Shown here piece by piece: positions 420 through 8,113 of a stretch of DNA of 8,113 nt. Numbering within the stretch: position 1 is the stretch's first letter; every line of letters starts with the position of its first letter. Position numbers and translations under genes: made by a program. The notes under the pieces were generated by a model. That model did not search any database. It saw only the letters and a program-made list of their open reading frames with translations, and was not told where the DNA came from. The DNA is from a virus (Duplodnaviria > Heunggongvirae > Uroviricota > Caudoviricetes). The stretch lies in the IMG/VR virus record IMGVR_UViG_2693429779_000008; one strand, written 5' to 3'.

Positions 420-424
420 CAAGG

Positions 425-452
425 TTGATTTTTCCGGAATCTGTGGTAAATT
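425..452 (+). promoter_or_regulatory. pR'-like late promoter candidate (TTGATT, 16-bp spacer, TAAATT)
   Basis: TTGATT at 425-430 and TAAATT at 447-452 with a 16-bp spacer, directly downstream of the Q-like stop codon. Lambda pR' also uses a TAAATT -10 element. Pattern match only. Confidence 0.3.
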
Positions 453-500
453 CGTCATAACGATGGGCGTTTTATGCCTGACGTTAGAAGAGTTTCTACA

Positions 501-523
501 ACCCGCCGCCGAGCGGGTTTTTT
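501..523 (+). terminator. Rho-independent terminator (tR'-like, type 1)
   Basis: 6-bp GC-rich stem ACCCGC/GCGGGT with loop CGCCGA, followed by a T-run (518-523). The same element with its upstream 14 nt recurs at 2579-2601. Confidence 0.6.
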
Positions 524-643
524 ATGACTGAAATCGCGTCAGTACAGTAAACGCGCTGGTGGCGGTGAATACCTGTCTTTCAGCTTGCTGGCTTTTTCGA
601 CAAGAGTTATTGGTGTGTCACGTTAACCGGAAAAGGAAAAGAC

Positions 644-841
644 ATGCTAAAACAGCAGGATATGACAGAAACCGCCAGAGTGGTGTTTAATGAATTAAGC
701 GTTACCGAACCGGCGACAGTCGGGGAGATAGCGCAGAATACTTACCTTTCACGCGAACGCTGCCAGTTAATACTGACCCAGCTGGTTATGGCGGGTCTGG
801 CAGACTATCAGTTCGGTTGTTACAGACGCCTTCCGCAGTGA
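644..841 (+). CDS. Small helix-turn-helix (winged-helix-like) protein, 65 aa, function unknown
   Basis: ATG at 644 is preceded by AGGAAA at about -12 to -7. The segment TVGEIAQNTYLSRERCQLILTQLVMAGL has typical HTH character. The stop codon lies inside a terminator hairpin (828-851). Confidence 0.6.
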   Translation: MLKQQDMTETARVVFNELSVTEPATVGEIAQNTYLSRERCQLILTQLVMAGLADYQFGCYRRLPQ

Positions 842-851
842 AGGCTTTTTT
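828..851 (+). terminator. Rho-independent terminator overlapping the stop of the HTH gene
   Basis: Stem GCCTTC (828-833) / GAAGGC (840-845), 6-nt loop, then TTTTTT (846-851). Confidence 0.5.
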
Positions 852-991
852 ATTTGTGGTAAATGGGCGGCTGGTGGGTGTTAGGGGCACCCACCAGCCA
901 TCTGCTCATGCGTTGGGTTCACAAGCAAACCTCAGGCCCACTGCTTTGCGCAAAAGCAGAATGAGCCTATCAGAGACAGGCTTAATGATCC

Positions 992-2050
992 ATGCTTAAT
1001 GCTGTAAAAATATCCAGTTGTGAGTTAATCAACGCCGACTGCCTGGAATTTATCCGGTCGTTACCCGAAAATTCTGTTGACCTGATAGTCACGGACCCGC
1101 CGTACTTTAAAGTGAAGCCTGAGGGCTGGGATAACCAGTGGAAGGGCGACGATGATTACCTGAAGTGGCTGGACCAGTGTCTGGCGCAGTTCTGGCGGGT
1201 GCTGAAACCTGCCGGAAGTCTTTACCTGTTCTGTGGTCATCGCCTGGCATCTGATATCGAAATCATGATGCGTGAACGCTTCAGTGTGCTGAACCATATT
1301 ATCTGGGCGAAGCCGTCCGGACGCTGGAACGGATGCAACAAGGAAAGCCTGCGGGCGTATTTCCCCGCCACAGAGCGCATTCTGTTCGCGGAACATTATC
1401 AGGGGCCGTATCGTCCGAAAGATGCCGGGTATGCGGCGAAGGGCAGTGCACTGAAACAGCATGTGATGGCCCCGCTGATTTCTTACTTTCGTGATGCGCG
1501 AGCTGCCCTGGGGATAACGGCAAAACAGATTGCAGATGCCACAGGAAAGAAAAACATGGTGTCGCACTGGTTCAGTGCCGGTCAGTGGCAGTTGCCGAAT
1601 GAAAGCGATTATCTGAAATTACAGGCGCTGTTTGCCCGGGTGGCAGAAGAGAAGCATCGGCGTGGTGAACTGGAAAAGCTCCACCACCAGCTGGTGGATA
1701 CGTATACCTCACTGAACCGGCAGTATGCGGAGCTGCTGAGTGAATATAAACATCTGCGGCGGTATTTTGGCGTGACGGTGCAGGTGCCGTATACCGATGT
1801 GTGGACGCATAAACCGGTGCAGTTCTATCCCGGGAAACATCCGTGCGAAAAACCGGCAGAAATGCTGCAGCAGATAATCAGCGCTAGCAGTCGTCCGGGT
1901 GACCTGATTGCAGATTTTTTCATGGGGTTGGGTTCGACAGTGAAAGCGGCACTGGCGCTCGGGCGTCGTGCAATTGGCGTTGAGCTGGAGACTGAACGTT
2001 TTGAGCAGACGGTTCGGGAAGTACAGGATTTAGTCAGCCAGAACGGATGA
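992..2050 (+). CDS. Orphan DNA methyltransferase, beta-class N6-adenine/N4-cytosine type (352 aa)
   Basis: Catalytic motif IV DPPY (VTDPPYF) lies near the N-terminus and the AdoMet-binding motif I (FFMGLGST...LGRRAIGVELE) near the C-terminus. This IV-before-I order is typical of beta-class amino-MTases common in phages. No adjacent restriction endonuclease gene is visible. Target specificity cannot be read from the sequence. Confidence 0.9.
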   Translation: MLNAVKISSCELINADCLEFIRSLPENSVDLIVTDPPYFKVKPEGWDNQWKGDDDYLKWLDQCLAQFWRVLKPAGSLYLFCGHRLASDIEIMMRERFSVLNHIIWAKPSGRWNGCNKESLRAYFPATERILFAEHYQGPYRPKDAGYAAKGSALKQHVMAPLISYFRDARAALGITAKQIADATGKKNMVSHWFSAGQWQLPNESDYLKLQALFARVAEEKHRRGELEKLHHQLVDTYTSLNRQYAELLSEYKHLRRYFGVTVQVPYTDVWTHKPVQFYPGKHPCEKPAEMLQQIISASSRPGDLIADFFMGLGSTVKAALALGRRAIGVELETERFEQTVREVQDLVSQNG

Positions 2051-2090
2051 TATTGAAGAATTAATTACGCGTCGTTATTATGCGGCTCCC

Positions 2091-2166
2091 GGCCCTTTAG
2101 CTCAGTGGTGAGAGCGAGCGACTCATAATCGCCAGGTCGCTGGTTCAAATCCAGCAAGGGCCACCA
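2091..2166 (+). tRNA. ileZ: tRNA with CAT anticodon, ileX/ileZ-like (tRNA-Ile2 read via lysidine, or Met), 76 nt with encoded CCA
   Basis: Hand-folded cloverleaf: acceptor GGCCCTT/AAGGGCC, D-stem GCTC/GAGC, anticodon loop CTCATAA, T-loop TTCAAAT, encoded CCA. Closely resembles E. coli ileX as recalled. The symbol is by analogy to Stx-phage tRNA clusters. Confidence 0.85.
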
Positions 2167-2173
2167 TCACATA

Positions 2174-2250
2174 CCGCCATTAGCTCATCAGGAAAGAGCG
2201 CCAGCCTTCGAAGCTGGCTGCGCGGGGTTCAAGTCCCCGATGGCGGTCCA
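2174..2250 (+). tRNA. argN: tRNA-Arg, anticodon TCG (reads CGA), 77 nt with encoded CCA
   Basis: Hand-folded: acceptor CCGCCAT/ATGGCGG (unusual C1-G72), D-loop ATCAGGAAA, anticodon stem CCAGC/GCTGG with loop CTTCGAA, T-loop TTCAAGT. The symbol is by positional analogy to the ileZ-argN-argO cluster of Stx phages and is not verified. Confidence 0.7.
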
Positions 2251-2263
2251 TTATCTGCATCAT

Positions 2264-2340
2264 GCGTTGTTAGCTCAGCCGGACAGAGCAATTGCCTTCT
2301 AAGCAATCGGTCACTGGTTCGAATCCAGTACAACGCGCCA
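2264..2340 (+). tRNA. argO: tRNA-Arg, anticodon TCT (reads AGA), 77 nt with encoded CCA
   Basis: Hand-folded: acceptor GCGTTGT/ACAACGC, anticodon stem ATTGC/GCAAT with loop CTTCTAA, T-loop TTCGAAT. Symbol by positional analogy. Confidence 0.85.
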
Positions 2341-2354
2341 CACTTATTTTCCCT

Positions 2355-2380
2355 GGCTCGCTTTTGCGGGCCTTTTTTTT
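2355..2380 (+). terminator. Rho-independent terminator after tRNA triplet 1
   Basis: 7-bp stem GGCTCGC/GCGGGCC (one G-U pair) with TTTT loop, followed by eight T residues (2373-2380). Confidence 0.6.
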
Positions 2381-2566
2381 AAATGTCTCACAATTCAGAC
2401 GGTTGACAGTTGTCTGTTTTGCGGGGAGTTTGTTAAAAGAAACTGGCATGGTGAATCCCCCTGTGCGGAGGGGCAATCAGCGAGTAGGTATATGGGATAA
2501 TCGCGGATTCAGGTGCTGGTACTGAATTCACCGGGAGGCACCCGGCATCATGCAATGGCACATAGC
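2381..2566 (+). repeat. Module copy A: TTGACA hexamer, conserved hairpins, ends ...CACATAGC; candidate promoter/leader or structured-RNA unit
   Basis: Near-identical to 3554-3739 and 4501-4686; a diverged homolog lies at 4961-5184. Contains TTGACA (2403-2408), hairpin CCCCT-GTGCGG-AGGGG, and hairpin CCGGG-AGGCA-CCCGG. Followed by the type-1 terminator. Confidence 0.8.
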
Positions 2567-2578
2567 AGAGTTTCTACA

Positions 2579-2601
2579 ACCCGCCGCCGAGCGGGTTTTT
2601 T
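2579..2601 (+). terminator. Rho-independent terminator (second copy of type 1)
   Basis: Same ACCCGC-CGCCGA-GCGGGT hairpin plus T-run as 501-523, including the AGAGTTTCTACA lead-in. Confidence 0.6.
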
Positions 2602-2640
2602 ATTGCGGAATTAATTACGGACCGTTATTATTCTGCTCCC

Positions 2641-2716
2641 GGCCCTTTAGCTCAGTGGTGAGAGCGAGCGACTCATAATCGCCAGGTCGCTGGTTCAAAT
2701 CCAGCAAGGGCCACCA
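2641..2716 (+). tRNA. ileZ: tRNA with CAT anticodon (second copy, identical to 2091-2166)
   Basis: 76 nt identical to the first copy. The upstream spacer GAATTAATTACG...CTCCC is also duplicated with a few substitutions. Confidence 0.85.
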
Positions 2717-2723
2717 TCACAAA

Positions 2724-2803
2724 CCGCCATTAGCTTATCAGGAAGAGCAGACGACATGATAACAGGGTTGTTGGTGCGGGGGCGGGTCCCCGATGGCGGT
2801 CCA
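2724..2803 (+). pseudogene. Degenerate tRNA-like element (paralog of tRNA-Arg TCG with rewritten anticodon and T arms)
   Basis: Acceptor stem CCGCCAT/ATGGCGG and D-arm are retained, but the anticodon region is replaced by about 28 nt that do not form a canonical 5-bp stem with 7-nt loop, and the T-loop is GCGGGT instead of TTCAAGT. Probably non-functional, or a tRNA-derived element. Confidence 0.5.
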
Positions 2804-2816
2804 TTATCGGTATTCA

Positions 2817-2893
2817 GCGTTGTTAGCTCAGCCGGACAGAGCAATTGCCTTCTAAGCAATCGGTCACTGGTTCGAATCCAGTACAGCGCGCCA
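2817..2893 (+). tRNA. argO: tRNA-Arg, anticodon TCT (second copy, one acceptor-stem substitution giving a G-U pair)
   Basis: Same cloverleaf as 2264-2340. The 3' acceptor strand is ACAGCGC rather than ACAACGC. Confidence 0.8.
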
Positions 2894-3003
2894 TATTCAT
2901 TCTTCCAGATTCCTTCCGGCAGAGCCTTATACTGAAATATACCTGGCTCAGGATATTGTTGAAAATATTTTATGTTTGTCAAAAATAAAAGTTCTGTTAA
3001 GTA

Positions 3004-3357
3004 TTGATTGAGTGTTTGTTATACGGTCTAATGGTTTTTTCAGCATTAAATATTTATCATTCATATGGTGTGGGTAGAGTGAATATTGATGAGGCGTCGG
3101 GGTGTTTCATCCTTAGGCAGCGTATTGATATAGTCAATGCAGCACGAGCAAAGGCCTTCAGCCGTTTGACAGTTTTGTTCTGTACTCCTGATCGTCTTTC
3201 GGGAAGAGACGTTATTATTCTGAATAGTGATGCTATACAGAGGGTTTGCGATGAGTTCATGGTTGCTAATTCAGAATTATTTGCTCTTGTTCAGGAGTAC
3301 AACAGAATAGCCAGGACCTGTGGTATGGATGAACTTCGGATTACTCATCTGGGGTAG
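3004..3357 (+). CDS. Hypothetical protein, no recognisable family; start codon uncertain
   Basis: Open frame from TTG at 3004 to TAG at 3355-3357; alternative in-frame starts are ATG 3031 and GTG 3070/3079, none with a convincing Shine-Dalgarno. Preceded by an AT-rich promoter-like stretch (2940-3003). Coding status is unproven. Confidence 0.3.
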   Translation: MIECLLYGLMVFSALNIYHSYGVGRVNIDEASGCFILRQRIDIVNAARAKAFSRLTVLFCTPDRLSGRDVIILNSDAIQRVCDEFMVANSELFALVQEYNRIARTCGMDELRITHLG

Positions 3358-3553
3358 ATACATATCTGGATTATCACCTGTTACGGTAAAAAGTGATTGC
3401 TTACTGTTTTTGTGAATGGCATTGCAGCAGCCGGATAATGTCAGTGCTGGCTGACGGTGTGCTGGTGGCGGGTGTGGTGGTTGTTGCTTTCCCGTTGCTG
3501 AAAAAGAAAACGCCAGACTGTTAGCCGGGTATCAGTTAGCGGGAGAAATTTTT

Positions 3554-3739
3554 AAATACTTCACAATTCAGGCGGTTGACTGTTGTCTGGTTTGCGGGGA
3601 GTTTGTTAAAAGAAACTGGCATGGTGAATCCCCCTGTGCGGAGGGGCAATCAGCGAGTAGGTATATGGGATAATCGCGGATTCAGGTGCTGGTACTGAAT
3701 TCACCGGGAGGCACCCGGCACCATGCAATGGCACATAGC
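3554..3739 (+). repeat. Module copy B (hexamer is TTGACT in this copy)
   Basis: Aligns base-for-base with copy A apart from a few substitutions near the 5' end. Followed by the type-2 terminator. Confidence 0.8.
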
Positions 3740-3749
3740 GCCACTCTCC

Positions 3750-3774
3750 AGCCCCTCTCCGGAGGGGCTGTTTA
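3750..3774 (+). terminator. Rho-independent terminator (type 2)
   Basis: 8-bp stem AGCCCCTC/GAGGGGCT with TCCG loop, then GTTTATATT. Confidence 0.6.
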
Positions 3775-3804
3775 TATTGATTTTGTCAGATGTGAGTAAA
3801 CTCC

Positions 3805-4140
3805 TTATGGACTTTGTTGTTTTAGTCCATAAGGACATATTTGCAGAGTGCAACGGTTATTAAAGCATTCATTCAATACGTTATCTGTATTTGTAGGGCA
3901 TTCCTGGCTATTTTTGATTGAATTCCAGAATGTTTTATTGAATGGTACTACGTTGTAAATGGTTACAGGTAGCACTTTGTTATTGAGCATGATGCCTGTG
4001 TGAGTCAGTGTAAATATACTTTCAGGAGGTAAGAAAGCATCCGATTGATACCAGATTATTAATTTTATTTTACTCCATATGACTGAAAAAGATATTCCGC
4101 ATGATGGCTGGATAACTGTATCAATCACAATCCACTTCAT
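3805..4140 (-). CDS. Hypothetical protein, 111 aa, with four cysteines in the C-terminal part, encoded antisense to the late operon in an AT-rich island
   Basis: On the minus strand the ATG at 4140-4138 is preceded by AAGGAAACTAA (good Shine-Dalgarno spacing). Composition is visibly AT-rich compared with flanking phage DNA. A perfect 12-bp inverted repeat (3802-3813 / 3824-3835) overlaps the stop codon. No family recognised. Confidence 0.45.
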
Positions 4141-4400
4141 TTAGTTTCCTTGTTTATGCCTTGCTGGTGATGTTCTGAAAAGTATAAATGATATTTTTGA
4201 ATGTAAACCATAGAGCAGAATTATTTTTCTGATGTTGTTTATTGTTTATTTAAATGCAGGGTGGTTTATATCTCGTCTTGTAGTTTATCCATGCATATCT
4301 GCTTGATAATCAGGTTTTTATTTAAGGTATGGTTTTGTGTTTTTTCTGTATTACATGTCAGGTATTTTAAAGAATTATTTTTCAGATGGTGGAAAGAACC

Positions 4401-4502
4401 ATGGCATTTAAACACTATGATGTTGTCAGGGCGGCGCCGCCGTCAGATCTTGCGGAAAAGCTGACACATAAACTGAAAGAGGGCTGGCAGCCATTTTTTT
4501 AA
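4401..4502 (+). pseudogene. Truncated paralog of the nanS-p 5' end (first 33 codons of the DUF1737-type N-terminus, then stop)
   Basis: Encodes MAFKHYDVVRAAPPSDLAEKLTHKLKEGWQPFF-stop; the full gene at 5436 begins MAFKHYDVVRAASPSDLAKRLTQKLKEGWQPFG. That is 5 differences in 33 residues. The frame ends where module copy C begins (stop TAA at 4500-4502 made by the junction). Confidence 0.65.
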
Positions 4503-4686
4503 ATGTCTCACAATTCAGACGGTTGACAGTTGTCTGTTTTGCGGGGAGTTTGTTAAAAGAAACTGGCATGGTGAATCCCCCTGTGCGGAGGGGCAATCAG
4601 CGAGTAGGTATATGGGATAATCGCGGATTCAGGTGCTGGTACTGAATTCACCGGGAGGCACCCGGCATCATGCAATGGCACATAGC
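4501..4686 (+). repeat. Module copy C
   Basis: Near-identical to copy A (TTGACA at 4523-4528, same hairpins). Followed by the type-2 terminator. Confidence 0.8.
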
Positions 4687-4696
4687 GCCACTCTCC

Positions 4697-4720
4697 AGCC
4701 CTCTCCGGAGGGGCTTTTCT
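4697..4720 (+). terminator. Rho-independent terminator (type 2, one-base deletion variant)
   Basis: AGCCCTC-TCCG-GAGGGGCT followed by TTTTCT. Confidence 0.5.
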
Positions 4721-4909
4721 GTGCCGGATACATCACAGTTTCTGGAACCTTAGGTACTACAGTATCAGTCAGGGTGCTATATTTTCAGATGTGATGAAAG
4801 CCTGTCAGCAGGCAGGGCGTATCGGAAATGACCCAGTAGAGAAAACGTTGACTCAGATACCGGTGCTGAGTTACCGGGAAACCGGCATCACATGACCGCT
4901 ATCCTTCCA

Positions 4910-4936
4910 GGCCCATCCGCTCCGGTGGGCCTTTTT
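4910..4936 (+). terminator. Rho-independent terminator
   Basis: 8-bp stem GGCCCATC/GGTGGGCC (one G-U pair) with 6-nt loop, then TTTTT (4932-4936). Confidence 0.55.
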
Positions 4937-4960
4937 ACTGCAGAAAACAGGTTCCCCGTT

Positions 4961-5184
4961 AAATGCTATGTTGCTCACAATTCAGTAAGTTGACAGTTGC
5001 CTGTCAGACTGGGCATTTGTTAAAAAAATTTCGCATGGTGAATCCCCCTGAGCGGAGGGGCGACTGGTGACGGTATAATCTCTGATTATCAAAACGAGAA
5101 TGACGCGGGTTTAGTGGCACCGGGCTGAACTCACCGGGAGGCACCCGGCACCATGTGCATGATGATACAGATACGCGGCTTTAG
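4961..5184 (+). repeat. Module copy D (diverged homolog of A/B/C)
   Basis: Shares CTCACAATTCAG, TTGACAGTTG, TTTGTTAAAA, CATGGTGAATCCCCCTG-GCGGAGGGG, a TATAAT at the position of TATATG in A-C, and CTCACCGGGAGGCACCCGGCA. Intervening segments differ and include insertions. Confidence 0.7.
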
Positions 5185-5204
5185 CCCCTCTCCGGAGGGG
5201 TTTT
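5185..5204 (+). terminator. Rho-independent terminator (type 2 variant) closing copy D
   Basis: Stem CCCCTC/GAGGGG with TCCG loop, then TTTTCTTGTG. An A7 run plus the GCCCGCG/CGCGGGC hairpin immediately downstream (5214-5242) would act as a terminator for the opposite strand. Confidence 0.55.
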
Positions 5205-5435
5205 CTTGTGGGCAAAAAAAGCCCGCGCTGGGAGACGCGGGCGGCAAGGAATAAACAATAAAACGTGAAGTAATATTTCAGCTGGCGAATAATACCCCAT
5301 AGTAATCACTCTGCGCAACTGCGCGGTCTTTTTCGAATTGCGGGCTGTCGTCTCTCTTCTGCCATTGTCCTGTAACTTCCGGACTTCAGCCCGCTCCTTA
5401 TTTTACTCACAATATTATCCCGGCCGGGAGGATTC

Positions 5436-7289
5436 ATGGCATTTAAACACTATGACGTGGTCAGGGCGGCATCGCCGTCAGACCTTGCGAAACGACTGAC
5501 ACAAAAACTGAAGGAGGGCTGGCAGCCGTTTGGTAGTCCGGTGGCCATAACCCCTTATACCCTGATGCAGGCGATTGCAGCAGAAGGTGATGTGGTCGTC
5601 AGTGGTGCAACTGAGCCGGAGTGGTACTACGTCATCGTACTGGCCGGGCAATCCAATGCCATGGCTTACGGTGAAGGTCTTCCGCTTCCGGATTCATACG
5701 ATGCGCCCCATCCGCGCATTAAGCAACTGGCCCGTCGTAACACAGTGACTCCCGGTGGTGAAGTATGCGTATTTAACGACATCATTCCTGCTGACCATTG
5801 TCTGCATGATGTTCAGGATATGAGTACGATTAACCATCCCCGGGCTGACCTGAGCAAAGGGCAGTACGGCTGTGTCGGACAGGGCTTACATATTGCCAAA
5901 AAACTGCTTCCGTATATCCCTAATAATGCGGGGATCCTGCTGGTACCATGCTGTTGTGGTGGTTCGGCATTCACCCAGGGCACGGAGGGGACATTCAGCG
6001 AGTCCACGGGGGCCAGTCAGGATTCGGCTCGCTGGGGAGTGGGTAAGCCGTTATATCAGGATCTGCTTTTCCGCACGAAGGCAGCATTGCAGAAAAACCC
6101 GAAAAACGTTTTGCTGGCGATATGCTGGATGCAGGGGGAATTCGATATGACGAATGCCAGTTACGCCCAGCAGCCAGCAGCATTTCTTGCAATGGTACAG
6201 CAGTTCCGTGCTGACCTTGCCGGGCTGGCGGCGCAGTGTCACGGTGGAAGTCCGGCATCAGTCCCCTGGATTTGTGGCGACACGACATACGCGTGGAAAC
6301 AAGAACACGGTACGCAATATGAAGTGGTATATGGTGCATATAAAGGTAAAGAATCCCAGCAGATTTATTTTGTTCCCTTTATGACCGATGGTAGCGGAGT
6401 TAATACACCGACAAACAACCCGTCAGAAGATCCTGATATTGCCGGGTCTGGTTATTACGGTTCGGCATCCCGAACGAACAAAAACTGGGTATCATCAAAT
6501 CGCCCGACGCATTTCAGCTCATGGGCGCGTCGTGGCATTATTCCCGATCGTATGGCAACTGCTATTCTGAACGTAGCCGGTCGCACCTTAGCCTTCATTA
6601 GTGGTAAGGCACCGGAAATCAAACCCTCGCCCGGCGGCGACACGCCATCGGGGCCGTCTGAAGATGCATCCATACGCACAATCTCCCTGTTGCCGACAGC
6701 CGGAGACGCTGCTGCGCAGGGCTGGAGCATTAAGAATGGCGGAGTTCAGTTGTCAGATGGTGTATTTAAGATCACCAAGCAGAGCAATAAAGCCTGGTCC
6801 CTGACGCGCCCGGTGGATGACGCAGTCTCCCTGCTGACACGGGGTGGCAGACTGAGCTGTAAGTTTCGACTGTCAGGCGCACTGACCAACAACCAGTTCG
6901 GTCTGGGAATTTATCTGTATACCGATGTAGCGTTACCTGACGTCGTGGCGATGACCGGGACTGGTAACCCGTTCCTGATGTCGTTCTTCACCCAGACCAC
7001 AGACGGCAAACTGAATCTGATGCATCACAAGAAAGCAGGAAACACAAAGTTGGGCGAGTTCGGGAATTACAGTAACGACTGGCTGACGCTGGAGCTGGTG
7101 TTCACCGCCGGCAGTGCCACGGTTACTCCGAAACTGAATGGAGTGGCTGGCCCGGCATTCCAGGTCATAAAAGACAGTCTGACACTGGGGCTGAATGCGC
7201 TGACGCTGACGGATATTACCAAAAATGCAGCGTATGGCGTTGAGATAGAAAGTCTGGTGCTGGAGATAAATGCACCGGCATCATCATAA
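5436..7289 (+). CDS. nanS-p: Prophage NanS-p-type sialate O-acetylesterase (DUF1737 N-terminus, SGNH/SASA esterase core, C-terminal domain of unknown function), 617 aa
   Basis: ATG at 5436 is preceded by GGGAGG. The GQSNA motif carries the SGNH-family catalytic serine. The N-terminus matches the DUF1737 pattern of Stx-prophage esterases that normally lie between the stx/tRNA region and the lysis genes. Recognition-based; no search was run. Confidence 0.9.
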   Translation: MAFKHYDVVRAASPSDLAKRLTQKLKEGWQPFGSPVAITPYTLMQAIAAEGDVVVSGATEPEWYYVIVLAGQSNAMAYGEGLPLPDSYDAPHPRIKQLARRNTVTPGGEVCVFNDIIPADHCLHDVQDMSTINHPRADLSKGQYGCVGQGLHIAKKLLPYIPNNAGILLVPCCCGGSAFTQGTEGTFSESTGASQDSARWGVGKPLYQDLLFRTKAALQKNPKNVLLAICWMQGEFDMTNASYAQQPAAFLAMVQQFRADLAGLAAQCHGGSPASVPWICGDTTYAWKQEHGTQYEVVYGAYKGKESQQIYFVPFMTDGSGVNTPTNNPSEDPDIAGSGYYGSASRTNKNWVSSNRPTHFSSWARRGIIPDRMATAILNVAGRTLAFISGKAPEIKPSPGGDTPSGPSEDASIRTISLLPTAGDAAAQGWSIKNGGVQLSDGVFKITKQSNKAWSLTRPVDDAVSLLTRGGRLSCKFRLSGALTNNQFGLGIYLYTDVALPDVVAMTGTGNPFLMSFFTQTTDGKLNLMHHKKAGNTKLGEFGNYSNDWLTLELVFTAGSATVTPKLNGVAGPAFQVIKDSLTLGLNALTLTDITKNAAYGVEIESLVLEINAPASS

Positions 7290-7374
7290 AAAGTGAGCCA
7301 GCCAAATGGAAGGTATCGTTAAACTCACCGGTAGTGTCAGTGGGTCGTCTGAGATGCCTGCATGAGTTATCAGA

Positions 7375-7404
7375 GCCATCAGTACTTAACTGGTGGCTTT
7401 TTTT
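7375..7404 (+). terminator. Rho-independent terminator downstream of nanS-p
   Basis: Stem GCCATCAG/CTGGTGGC (one G-U pair) with loop TACTTAA, then TTTTTTT (7398-7404). Confidence 0.6.
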
Positions 7405-7439
7405 ATTGTTGTCAGCTTCCGGATAACGGGAGACGGGGT

Positions 7440-7655
7440 ATGTACCAGATGGAAAAAATCACAACAGGTGTGTCATACACCACGTCAGCGGTGGGAACGG
7501 GCTACTGGTTCCTGCAGTTGCTGGACAGGGTTTCCCCGTCTCAGTGGGCGGCAATAGGCGTGCTGGGGAGTCTGCTGTTTGGGCTGCTGACATATCTGAC
7601 TAACCTGTATTTCAAAATCAGAGAGGACCGTCGTAAGGCTGCACGGGGAGAGTAA
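7440..7655 (+). CDS. S: Class II pinholin, phage 21 S-type, with dual start motif (MYQM...)
   Basis: GGAGACGGGG Shine-Dalgarno precedes ATG 7440, with a second in-frame ATG at 7449, matching the antiholin/holin dual start of S21. The sequence ...[51 protein letters not shown] matches S21 as recalled. The ORF track's longer ORF from 7362 runs through the upstream terminator and is unlikely to be translated. Confidence 0.85.
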
Positions 7656-7659
7656 TTCA

Positions 7660-7974
7660 ATGACTCAAAACTATGAACTGATTGTGAAAGGGATCCGCAA
7701 TTTTGAGAATAAAGTTACGGTAACTTTAGCGTTACGGGACAAAAAACGCTTTGACGGTGAAATTTTTGACCTGGACATCTCGCTGGACCGTGTTGAAGGT
7801 GCCGCGCTGGAGTTTTATGAGGCAGCAGCCAGAAGGAGCATCAGACAGGTCTTCTTGGATGTTGCTGCCGGGTTATGTGAAGGGGACGAGCTGTTGCCAG
7901 AAACGCGCCCCTGTTCAGAGGCGCGGTATACCATAAAAATTAACAGTTCTGATAACTCGATTACGGGTTGTTAG
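7660..7974 (+). CDS. Hypothetical lysis-cassette protein (104 aa) between holin and endolysin
   Basis: ATG at 7660 is preceded by GGGGAGAG that overlaps the holin stop. Acidic, soluble-looking sequence. I recall similar small ORFs (possibly DUF1327) in this position in E. coli prophages, but cannot verify. Confidence 0.55.
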   Translation: MTQNYELIVKGIRNFENKVTVTLALRDKKRFDGEIFDLDISLDRVEGAALEFYEAAARRSIRQVFLDVAAGLCEGDELLPETRPCSEARYTIKINSSDNSITGC

Positions 7975-8029
7975 CTTTTTGCAGTTGGCTTTCCAGTATC
8001 TTTCATTGGTAGCATCCTGATAAATATCC

Positions 8030-8113
8030 ATGAGCGCAAAAATCAAATACGGCCTGTCAGCTGCTGTTCTGGCGCTGATTGCAAAATGGCATCTGAATCG
8101 ATCGCAGTTTGGC
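8030..8113 (+). CDS. Probable endolysin (signal-anchor-release type) N-terminus, 3' partial
   Basis: ATG at 8030 opens MSAKIKYGLSAAVLALIA..., an Ala/Gly/Leu-rich weakly hydrophobic N-terminus typical of SAR endolysins that partner with pinholins. Only 28 codons lie inside the window and the Shine-Dalgarno is weak. Confidence 0.4.
   Translation, partial: MSAKIKYGLSAAVLALIAKWHLNRSQFG

Follow-up and report, generated by a model that had tools for sequence, protein, structure and literature searches.

Serial terminators between Q and the lysis genes of a Shiga-toxin-phage-like prophage probably close a stack of small RNA and tRNA units

Introduction

Why would a prophage set one intrinsic terminator after another between its late promoter and its lysis genes? 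The question is raised by an 8,113-nucleotide (nt) stretch of tailed-phage DNA (Caudoviricetes; IMG/VR record IMGVR_UViG_2693429779_000008), referred to here as the window. In it, the original prediction, made from the letters alone, placed at least nine hairpin-plus-T-run terminators in series downstream of a promoter resembling lambda PR'. These were proposed to act as gates: a methyltransferase, tRNAs, accessory "moron" open reading frames (ORFs) and the esterase gene nanS-p would stay silent until the late antiterminator Q let polymerase through, and repeated TTGACA modules could supply Q-independent entry points. Here we consider what the terminators belong to and which genes Q would control. 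Taking the reading as a whole, we judge it probable that the window is the Q-to-lysis, or moron, interval of a lambdoid, Shiga toxin (Stx) phage-like prophage without stx, and that self-contained units with their own terminators are stacked there downstream of a lambda-type Q switch. Most of the terminators are the ends of small self-contained RNA genes, namely STnc100 small RNAs (sRNAs) and tRNAs, that lie between Q and the lysis genes.

A Q cassette has been defined as Q, PR', a pause element, a terminator and the downstream genes, and complexes loaded with Q ignore terminators for thousands of base pairs (PMC9388147). Lambdoid morons carry a promoter and a terminator of their own (reviewed in PMC8065619). 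The region past the Q-antiterminated PR' tolerates such insertions, and convergent sRNA genes are found there in eight Sakai prophages (PMC4104026). Q gating is textbook knowledge; control of both stx and nanS-p by Q has been published, as have STnc100 and morons that are self-contained, and the stacked layout is an ordinary one, already described for Shiga-toxin-type prophages. Stx2a phage late regions match about half of the window at ~90% DNA identity, and E. coli chromosomal prophages match up to 88% of it at ~97% identity.

Results

Strong terminators exceed chance and lie at gene ends

A consensus scan lists all nine of the predicted sites on the + strand and where they had been placed, with stems at 500-519, 828-845, 2355-2372, 2578-2597, 3749-3770, 4697-4715, 4909-4932, 5183-5202 and 7372-7400. 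All nine fold as clean hairpins of -9.6 to -20.3 kcal/mol. The T-tracts are strong (T5-T8) at 501, 828, 2355, 2579, 4910 and 7375, and interrupted or shorter at 3750 (TGTTTATATT), 4697 (TTTTCTGTG) and 5185 (TTTTCTTGTG). Over both strands of the window the scan returned 24 terminator-like sites, against 8.4±2.7 in shuffled sequence.

For the interval from the Q stop to the holin start (420-7439) we compared the counts with 200 dinucleotide shuffles, using a re-implemented scan that reproduces the original tool and calling a site strong when its stem has at least 6 bp with at least 4 G-C pairs. The + strand holds 12 non-overlapping sites (shuffles, 4.08±2.04), and 10 of these are strong (shuffles, 0.94±0.90; maximum 3 among the 200). 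The - strand of the interval has only 4 sites, and the strand bias is 10:3 toward +. Every one of the ten strong + strand sites is intergenic or at the 3' end of a gene; two weak hits, at 353 and 3193, fall inside ORFs and look like chance. These counts are conservative because the strict perfect-stem scan misses known tR' hairpins, that of lambda for its long loop and, with loops of at most 8 nt, that of Sakai for its 9-nt loop. The sites are not independent of one another: the site at 2579 duplicates the one at 501 (92% over 48 nt), and those at 3750, 4697 and 5185 are paralogous and have in common a near-perfect palindrome, CCCCTCTCCGGAGGGG (3753-3768, 4699-4713 and 5186-5201). About seven distinct sequence types can be told apart.

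The scan also found sites beyond the predicted nine. A tenth + strand terminator (5311-5334; 6-bp stem, 5 G-C pairs, tail TCTTTTTC) overlaps the promoter of a - strand sRNA gene described below and has a stronger homologue in Sakai (6706-6729 of L003, the Sakai Sp5 locus); a further + strand hairpin with a T-run lies at 7949-7982, and a strong - strand terminator at 5242-5221. Weak Rfam matches (Trp_leader at 420-526, OmrA-B at 5214-5302, P26 and Plastid-ycf2) all scored below gathering and were treated as chance.

A lambda-type Q cassette heads the array

Judged by its sequence, the head of the array appears to be a genuine lambda-type Q cassette. The window opens with the 3' part of a late antiterminator gene (3-419, + strand; Pfam PF03589 Antiterm, E=9.5e-32). 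The full-length homologue in a related prophage (L006, 3224-4045) matches the Q-lambda chains 7UBM_Q (E=2e-38, phmmer against PDB) and 4MO1, and a protein of the Q-lambda family is thus encoded immediately upstream of PR'. It carries an insert of ~70 amino acids with DnaJ-type CxxCxGxG zinc-finger repeats between the parts that match lambda Q 1-113 and 80-170.

Six bases past the Q stop begins a predicted promoter with a sigma-dependent pause element (425-467, + strand), TTGATT-N16-TAAATT-cgtcat-AACGATGGG, in which the -35 lies at 425-430 and the -10, preceded by TGg, at 447-452 after a 16-nt spacer. By analogy with lambda the start would be A459, followed from that base by the putative pause element AACGAT (459-464) and then GGG; AACGAT at +1 to +6, a -10-like sequence, is the sigma-70-dependent pause element of lambda. 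Lambda PR' (L008, 754-797) reads TTGACT-N17-TAAATT-tgactc-AACGATGGG, so that the two agree in the -10 hexamer, in the 6-nt length of the gap and in all nine bases from +1. PR' is invariant in five related prophages while the adjoining end of Q varies. Its spacer differs from that of lambda, yet it is conserved among relatives that share the same Q. The first terminator, tR' (500-524, + strand), has a 7-bp stem with 5 G-C pairs and a T6 tract, and in the relatives its stem is conserved and its loop variable. The leader RNA from PR' to tR' would measure ~65 nt. The lysis genes follow downstream, beginning with a holin (7440-7655). The predicted placement of the array between a PR'-like promoter and the lysis genes is thus borne out, and with a Q cassette at its head, Q-loaded polymerase must read through every terminator to reach holin S.

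The cassette resembles that of lambda in its Q-lambda family Q, its TAAATT -10, its 6-nt gap, the nine-base start and an intrinsic terminator with lysis genes behind it (S-R-Rz in lambda). It differs in that tR' ends at about +65 rather than +194, in the zinc-finger insertion in Q, and in the distance from PR' to S, which is filled by ~7 kb of morons with ten or more terminators, compared with 0.7 kb and one terminator in lambda.

In Stx phages PR' fires constitutively and stops at tR', and the leader, StxS, acts as an sRNA (PMC7547250). By the same logic, a constitutive PR' with a tR' would predict an abundant short leader RNA in lysogens of the window's phage. The likeness goes no further, since Sakai Sp5 has a different Q/PR' type with a leader of 258 nt, processed to 74 nt, against ~65 nt here. 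Homology of the two leaders was rejected: blastn of 420-530 against the Sp5 locus gave no match, and the Sp5 Q differs. A side observation concerns Sp5 itself, where a strong hairpin with a T7 tract resembling the window's tR' lies at 4369-4390 of L003, ~25-50 nt past the published PR' start as we placed it; the primary StxS transcript is reported as 258 nt and as ending at a later terminator (~4577-4603). The Sakai coordinate offset between genome versions, ~+135-142 nt, was derived from the position of AsxR.

Five of the nine terminators belong to STnc100-family units

Four full-length matches to Rfam family RF02076 (STnc100) lie on the + strand of the window, each including its terminator, with 119-161 bits against a gathering threshold of 47 bits. 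Copy 1 (2387-2608; 119 bits over 2417-2608) is a chimera. Copy 2 (3560-3779; 132.4 bits over 3590-3779) has its terminator at 3749-3774, copy 3 (4507-4726; 123.6 bits over 4537-4726) at 4697-4720 and copy 4 (4974-5213; 161 bits over 5004-5213) at 5183-5206; copy 4 is the closest to the Sakai EcOnc27 copy and is 87% identical to the copy 3' of stx2B in L002. A diverged STnc100/PasD-like paralogue (4765-4938, + strand; 30.1 bits, E=0.0014, below gathering) has its terminator at 4909-4936, shares alignment blocks with the other copies and occupies the same place in a group of relatives that we call type A prophages (L005, L006). The 3' helix of the model coincides with the predicted terminators at 2579, 3750, 4697 and 5185 in the full copies and at 4910 in the diverged one. 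The idea of serial gates therefore survives in one respect, that Q-dependent read-through would be required to pass them, and gives way in another, as sRNA genes that are probably autonomous have their 3' ends at five or more of the nine.

Behind a large and strongly conserved 5' domain, the stretch between the core and the terminator comes in three sequence types over the four copies, and these differing tails may represent different seed regions. In copy 1 the body stops at 2562/2563, where a second copy of the end of the PR' leader with its tR' hairpin (2579-2601) takes the place of the normal tail; the corresponding direct repeat, 485-532 and 2563-2610, is 92% identical.

What such modules may do is suggested by their homologues. 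The STnc100 of Sakai Sp5 (207.7 bits) lies just 3' of stx2B and is convergent with AsxR. The sequence of the EcOnc27 northern probe falls within it, so EcOnc27 and STnc100 are the same gene, an equation also made in PMC12711010. EcOnc27, an RNA of ~235/247 nt, binds Hfq and converges with AsxR at the moron site downstream of PR' (Tree et al. 2014, PMC4104026), and a 2026 preprint relates STnc100 to PasD1 and PasD2, abundant Hfq-dependent sRNAs of enteropathogenic E. coli (EPEC). Both EcOnc27 and PasD are abundant and Hfq-bound in cultures without deliberate induction, and regulation in trans has been reported (PMC4104026, PMC8550237). In Salmonella LT2, chromatin immunoprecipitation with exonuclease digestion (ChIP-exo) places RpoD signal at the promoters of multiple STnc100 copies (PMC10794520).

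The TTGACA hexamers (2403, 4523 and 4990, and 3576 as TTGACT) sit inside the conserved 5' block of the four STnc100 modules. A -10 partner 16-18 nt away was found in none of the four, and the promoter scan lists no such hexamer. One comparison comes from PasD2: its promoter is TTGACT-N18-TAAAAA, with a 5' end seen by RNA interaction by ligation and sequencing (RIL-seq) 7-8 nt past that -10, and this supported -35 aligns with TTGTCT/TTGCCT, 7 nt downstream of the TTGACA. We therefore rejected TTGACA as a -35. Homology to PasD2 yields the candidate promoter TTGTCT/TTGCCT-N18-(TGt)TAAAAG/A; a second candidate is a -10-like hexamer, differing from copy to copy, 4-11 nt upstream of CACAATTC. Both are absent from the promoter-scan list. 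Each module is closed by its own terminator 160-230 nt further on. Use of the TTGACA modules as Q-independent entry points thus finds no footing here, and by analogy with EcOnc27 and PasD we regard them as autonomous sRNA units, not bypass promoters.

These units occupy the position conserved for STnc100 (EcOnc27, also sRNA103), with the stx site on their 5' side and nanS-p on their 3' side. Their number differs: the window has four copies with three 3' tails, one of them with a swapped-in tR' terminator, compared with one copy in each sequenced phage genome. A query with copy 2 (220 nt) against a phage collection hit 275 places in 274 records, hence one STnc100 in each sequenced phage genome. 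Several STnc100 paralogues in one late region, together with the chimeric STnc100::tR' copy, are only modest novelties.

Two tRNA clusters form further units

tRNA unit A (2053-2380, + strand) consists of a promoter-like TTGAAG-N17-TATTAT (2053-2081), tRNA-Ile2/Met(CAT) (2091-2166), tRNA-Arg(TCG) (2174-2250), tRNA-Arg(TCT) (2264-2340) and the terminator at 2355-2380, which starts 15 nt past the last tRNA. Sakai Sp5 has an equivalent TTGCAG-N17-TATTAT site and the same post-tRNA terminator, just upstream of stx2A. Unit B (2641-2893, + strand) is 99% identical to the sequence type 131 (ST131) prophage L001 and comprises tRNA(CAT) (2641-2716), a decayed tRNA-Arg(TCG) remnant and tRNA-Arg(TCT) (2817-2893) behind an upstream TTGCGG-N17-TATTAT. 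In both sets TTGnnG-N17-TATTAT stands ~10 nt upstream of the first tRNA, and it is conserved in Sakai.

The decayed middle tRNA of set B (2717-2816) is uncalled by ARAGORN and occurs in the same decayed version in ST131 prophages. ARAGORN names 2091-2166 and 2641-2716 tRNA-Met(CAT), while their RefSeq homologues are annotated as tRNA-Ile (ileZ, anticodon CAT); presumably both are of the lysidine-modified Ile2 type.

Protein-coding genes and the lysis cassette

Two terminators precede the DNA methyltransferase gene (992-2050, + strand; PF01555, E=7.9e-42). One is tR'; the other (828-851) belongs to a 65-amino-acid ORF (644-841, + strand; unit 644-851), whose stop codon lies inside the hairpin. 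L001, L002 and L006 have a hypothetical protein annotated at this place, and its terminator as well. The + strand scan gave no promoter-like site upstream of either the methyltransferase or nanS-p, the latter a sialate O-acetylesterase gene (5436-7289, + strand) with DUF1737, SASA and DUF6645 domains. In related Stx2a strains mitomycin C raises nanS-p by 1-2.4 logs (PMC10462455).

The last terminator before lysis (7372-7407, + strand; 12-bp stem and T7) lies 83 nt past the stop codon of nanS-p, and the holin gene starts 33 nt beyond it. It is conserved in L001, L005 and L006; in EPEC PP2 another hairpin takes this position. A PasA/PasC sRNA was considered here and rejected, as PasA of EPEC lies on the - strand between nanS-p and holin and the window has no such element there. 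The lysis cassette begins behind this terminator (7440-8113, + strand) with a class II holin (PF04971, E=9e-33), DUF1327/YdfR (7660-7974; PF07041, E=5.1e-39) and the start of an endolysin near 8031. The hairpin at 7949-7982, with an 11-bp stem, overlaps the last DUF1327/YdfR codons between holin and endolysin and would be a further terminator-like site for Q-loaded polymerase to pass inside the lysis cassette.

Between 2800 and 4400 the GC content falls to 0.31-0.41, compared with 0.50-0.55 elsewhere (~0.52), which is consistent with a foreign moron block; deviant composition is confined to this ORF117/iraM block. It contains a 117-amino-acid ORF (3004-3357), for which no Pfam or NCBIfam match was found, and a DUF3927 protein (3393-3524), both low-GC morons (~0.40) on the + strand, as well as the anti-adapter gene iraM (3805-4140, - strand; NCBIfam NF007393, E=4.7e-48; also annotated by the Prokaryotic Genome Annotation Pipeline (PGAP) in L001), with a GC content of 0.31-0.34. 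Terminators on the + strand cannot gate a gene read from the other strand, and the claim that the moron ORFs are gated fails for iraM.

A second - strand unit is a convergent sRNA gene of ~70 nt (5214-5318) with a predicted -35 TTGCGC (5318-5313), a -10 TATTAT (5294-5289), a probable start at ~5282 and the terminator at 5242-5221 (8-bp stem with 7 G-C pairs, T7). Its 3' part has almost the same sequence as the EPEC RIL-seq candidate E2348C_1409.E2348C_1408.IGR. It converges on STnc100 copy 4, and its position and promoter layout mirror those of AsxR in Sakai. It nevertheless has a different RNA body and is not AsxR or AgvB by Rfam (RF02703/RF02702): neither family matched the window at E<=1, and AsxR scores 88 bits in Sakai. 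For the tRNA site at 2053-2081, this sRNA and the iraM region, the promoters of the moron units are consensus-level only; terminators are present.

The layout is shared with Stx phages

Strong + strand terminators occur in seven other Q-S intervals at 0.74-1.78 per kb, and the window, at 1.42 per kb, falls within this range. The type A prophages have 8-9 in 4.9-5.7 kb, with two STnc100/PasD cores and a diverged copy; Stx2a EH1910 and Sakai Sp5 have 5 each, the ST131 prophage 4 and EPEC PP2 3, each of these four with one STnc100/PasD core. Stx2 phages (933W, Sakai Sp5 and Stx2_EH1910) show the order Q-PR'-tR'-(methylase)-tRNAs-stx2AB-STnc100/AsxR-(iraM)-nanS-p-S, in which stx2A directly follows the post-tRNA terminator and stx2B is directly followed by STnc100. 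The window shares with them the gene order, the tRNA trio with its post-tRNA terminator, an STnc100 and a convergent - strand sRNA before nanS-p, and the pre-holin terminator. Unlike them, it lacks stx, has four full and one diverged STnc100 instead of one, carries a duplicated tRNA cluster and has a - strand sRNA that is not AsxR. The units also resemble lambdoid morons (Juhala et al. 2000; PMC8065619) in lying between late genes, in that several have a promoter-like site and a terminator, and in the foreign GC content of the iraM/ORF117 block; they differ in that most encode RNAs, not proteins, and in having predicted promoters.

The window is a mosaic of two late-region types

The segments 1-2566 and 4494-7911 are colinear with the type A prophages (~94.5% to L006). 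Between them, 2563-2773 matches an arrangement in L007 in which tR' is directly followed by a tRNA (99.1%), and 2602-4496 matches the ST131 prophage at 99.0% and also L007; 5435-7911 likewise matches the ST131 prophage at 99.0%. From this map, the type A STnc100 is interrupted by a segment that begins at tR' and extends 100 nt into nanS-p. This accounts for the truncated STnc100 fused to a tR' hairpin (copy 1), for the duplicated tRNA set and for an orphan nanS-p 5' fragment (4391-4496, + strand; DUF1737 N-terminus), a direct repeat of 5426-5531 (85%) that is joined at 4496, via 3-4 nt of microhomology, to the T8 run preceding STnc100 copy 3. The terminator count is high because the window recombines two late-region types, with duplicated cassettes. 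A search of 5,426 complete E. coli genomes gave no contiguous match to either junction (2562/2563 and 4496), and the copy 1::tR' junction sequence has no exact match in GTDB species representatives or IMG/VR. Both lie at microhomologies and not inside shared repeats, a placement that argues for real recombination.

Discussion

We propose the following course of events, pieced together largely from relatives. In the lysogen, PR' would fire constitutively and stop at tR', as it does in Stx phages, while the tRNA, STnc100 and - strand sRNA units would have separate transcripts, running from their own promoters to their own terminators. The terminators would then form the 3' ends and U-tails of the sRNAs and tRNA transcripts, insulate neighbouring units from one another and, most importantly, keep PR' and the moron promoters out of the holin and endolysin genes. 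Upon induction, Q would load onto polymerase paused at about +16 of PR', a step that is established for Q-lambda. Q-loaded polymerase would resist hairpin-dependent termination, and only transcription initiated at PR' would cross the ten or more terminators. The promoterless methyltransferase and nanS-p, and probably the small ORFs, would thereby be switched on together with lysis. Q-modified polymerase also resists Rho, which would matter for the ~3.4-kb stretch between 2051 and 5435, which is largely untranslated.

As to the cargo, gating by Q can be kept in part. Given the Q cassette, the lack of an upstream promoter-like site in our scan and the induction of nanS-p in relatives, coupling to induction is very likely for nanS-p and probable for the methyltransferase. 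It is not expected for the tRNAs and sRNAs, in view of the promoter-like site of the former and the uninduced expression of homologues of the latter.

Several observations weigh against stacked, self-contained units behind a Q switch. Promoter-like sites across the window are not above chance (9, against 9.9±2.9 in shuffles), and the tRNA promoter, though conserved, is a consensus match only. The Sakai sizes of 235/247 nt imply a start upstream of CACAATTCAG, in which case TTGACA would itself be transcribed, whereas homology to PasD2 implies a start at GCAUGGUG and an STnc100 RNA of ~175 nt. The three sRNA terminators with interrupted U-tracts may leak. As for the switch, the window holds only the C-terminal 138 amino acids of Q, the Q of L001 is frameshifted, and a Q-binding element between -35 and -10 is not recognisable by sequence. 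Start sites, termination efficiencies and Q dependence at this locus are what we infer.

Other readings of the array fare less well. A pure gate, in which the terminators silence all cargo until Q is made and the TTGACA modules give extra Q-independent entry, draws on the same real Q/PR' cassette in front of the lysis genes, on the induction coupling of nanS-p and stx in relatives and on the want of + strand promoter-like sites upstream of the methyltransferase and nanS-p. We nevertheless think it unlikely, because five of the nine hairpins belong to STnc100-family units with homologues that need no deliberate induction to be expressed, a promoter-like site is conserved upstream of the tRNA clusters, iraM is read from the - strand, and a TTGACA without a -10 partner at 16-18 nt, closed off by the module's own terminator, could not feed downstream genes unless that terminator leaked. 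The STnc100 modules might instead be cis-acting structured elements of the late transcript, serving its processing, stability or termination control, in which case the hairpins would be regulatory parts of these elements. All copies do lie on the late-transcript strand within the Q-S interval, a variable tail follows a large 5' domain that is strongly conserved, and the assignment of their promoter is ambiguous; yet trans targets are reported for EcOnc27 and PasD, both of them discrete RNAs bound by Hfq, the STnc100 promoters of Salmonella are bound by RpoD, and nothing here shows a cis effect, so that this reading seems very improbable. That the hairpins are chance matches or generic repeats is effectively refuted. 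Consensus scans do yield false positives, as the hits inside ORFs at 353 and 3193 illustrate, but ten strong + strand sites stand against 0.94±0.90 in shuffles, the bias toward that strand is 10:3, and all strong sites lie at the 3' ends of units at positions conserved across relatives.

The mosaic structure raises a different doubt, namely that part of the array is an assembly chimera, its duplicated cassettes, which are copy 1 with tRNA set B and the nanS-p fragment with copy 3, stemming from two co-resident prophages joined by mistake, with fewer true terminators than counted. The window is indeed a patchwork of two known late-region types, neither of its specific junctions occurs in the complete E. 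coli genomes, and copy 1::tR' is absent from the GTDB representatives and IMG/VR. Against this, both junctions are non-homologous, with 3-4 nt of microhomology, and not where assemblers switch paths, and the type A prophages, which are real and common (~351 genomes), have 8-9 strong terminators and 2+1 copies of STnc100; we consider a chimera improbable. A more speculative thought, to which we would give a small but appreciable chance, takes the Q-S interval as a growing array of STnc100/PasD sRNA genes: recombination between co-resident prophages at the 5' domain or at microhomologies would multiply modules and swap 3' tails and terminators, leaving several paralogues with different seed tails in one late operon. 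If so, each added terminator would, as a by-product, tighten the lock on lysis.

Read as stacked self-contained units behind a lambda-type Q switch, the window provides a worked example of the moron site of Stx-type prophages, in which one Q switch faces ten or more terminators that are mostly the ends of sRNA and tRNA units. In annotation the repeated modules ought to be entered as STnc100-family sRNA genes, where PGAP leaves a blank or calls spurious small ORFs. The STnc100 copies and the chimera could further serve to study whether recombination lets prophages diversify their sRNA seeds.

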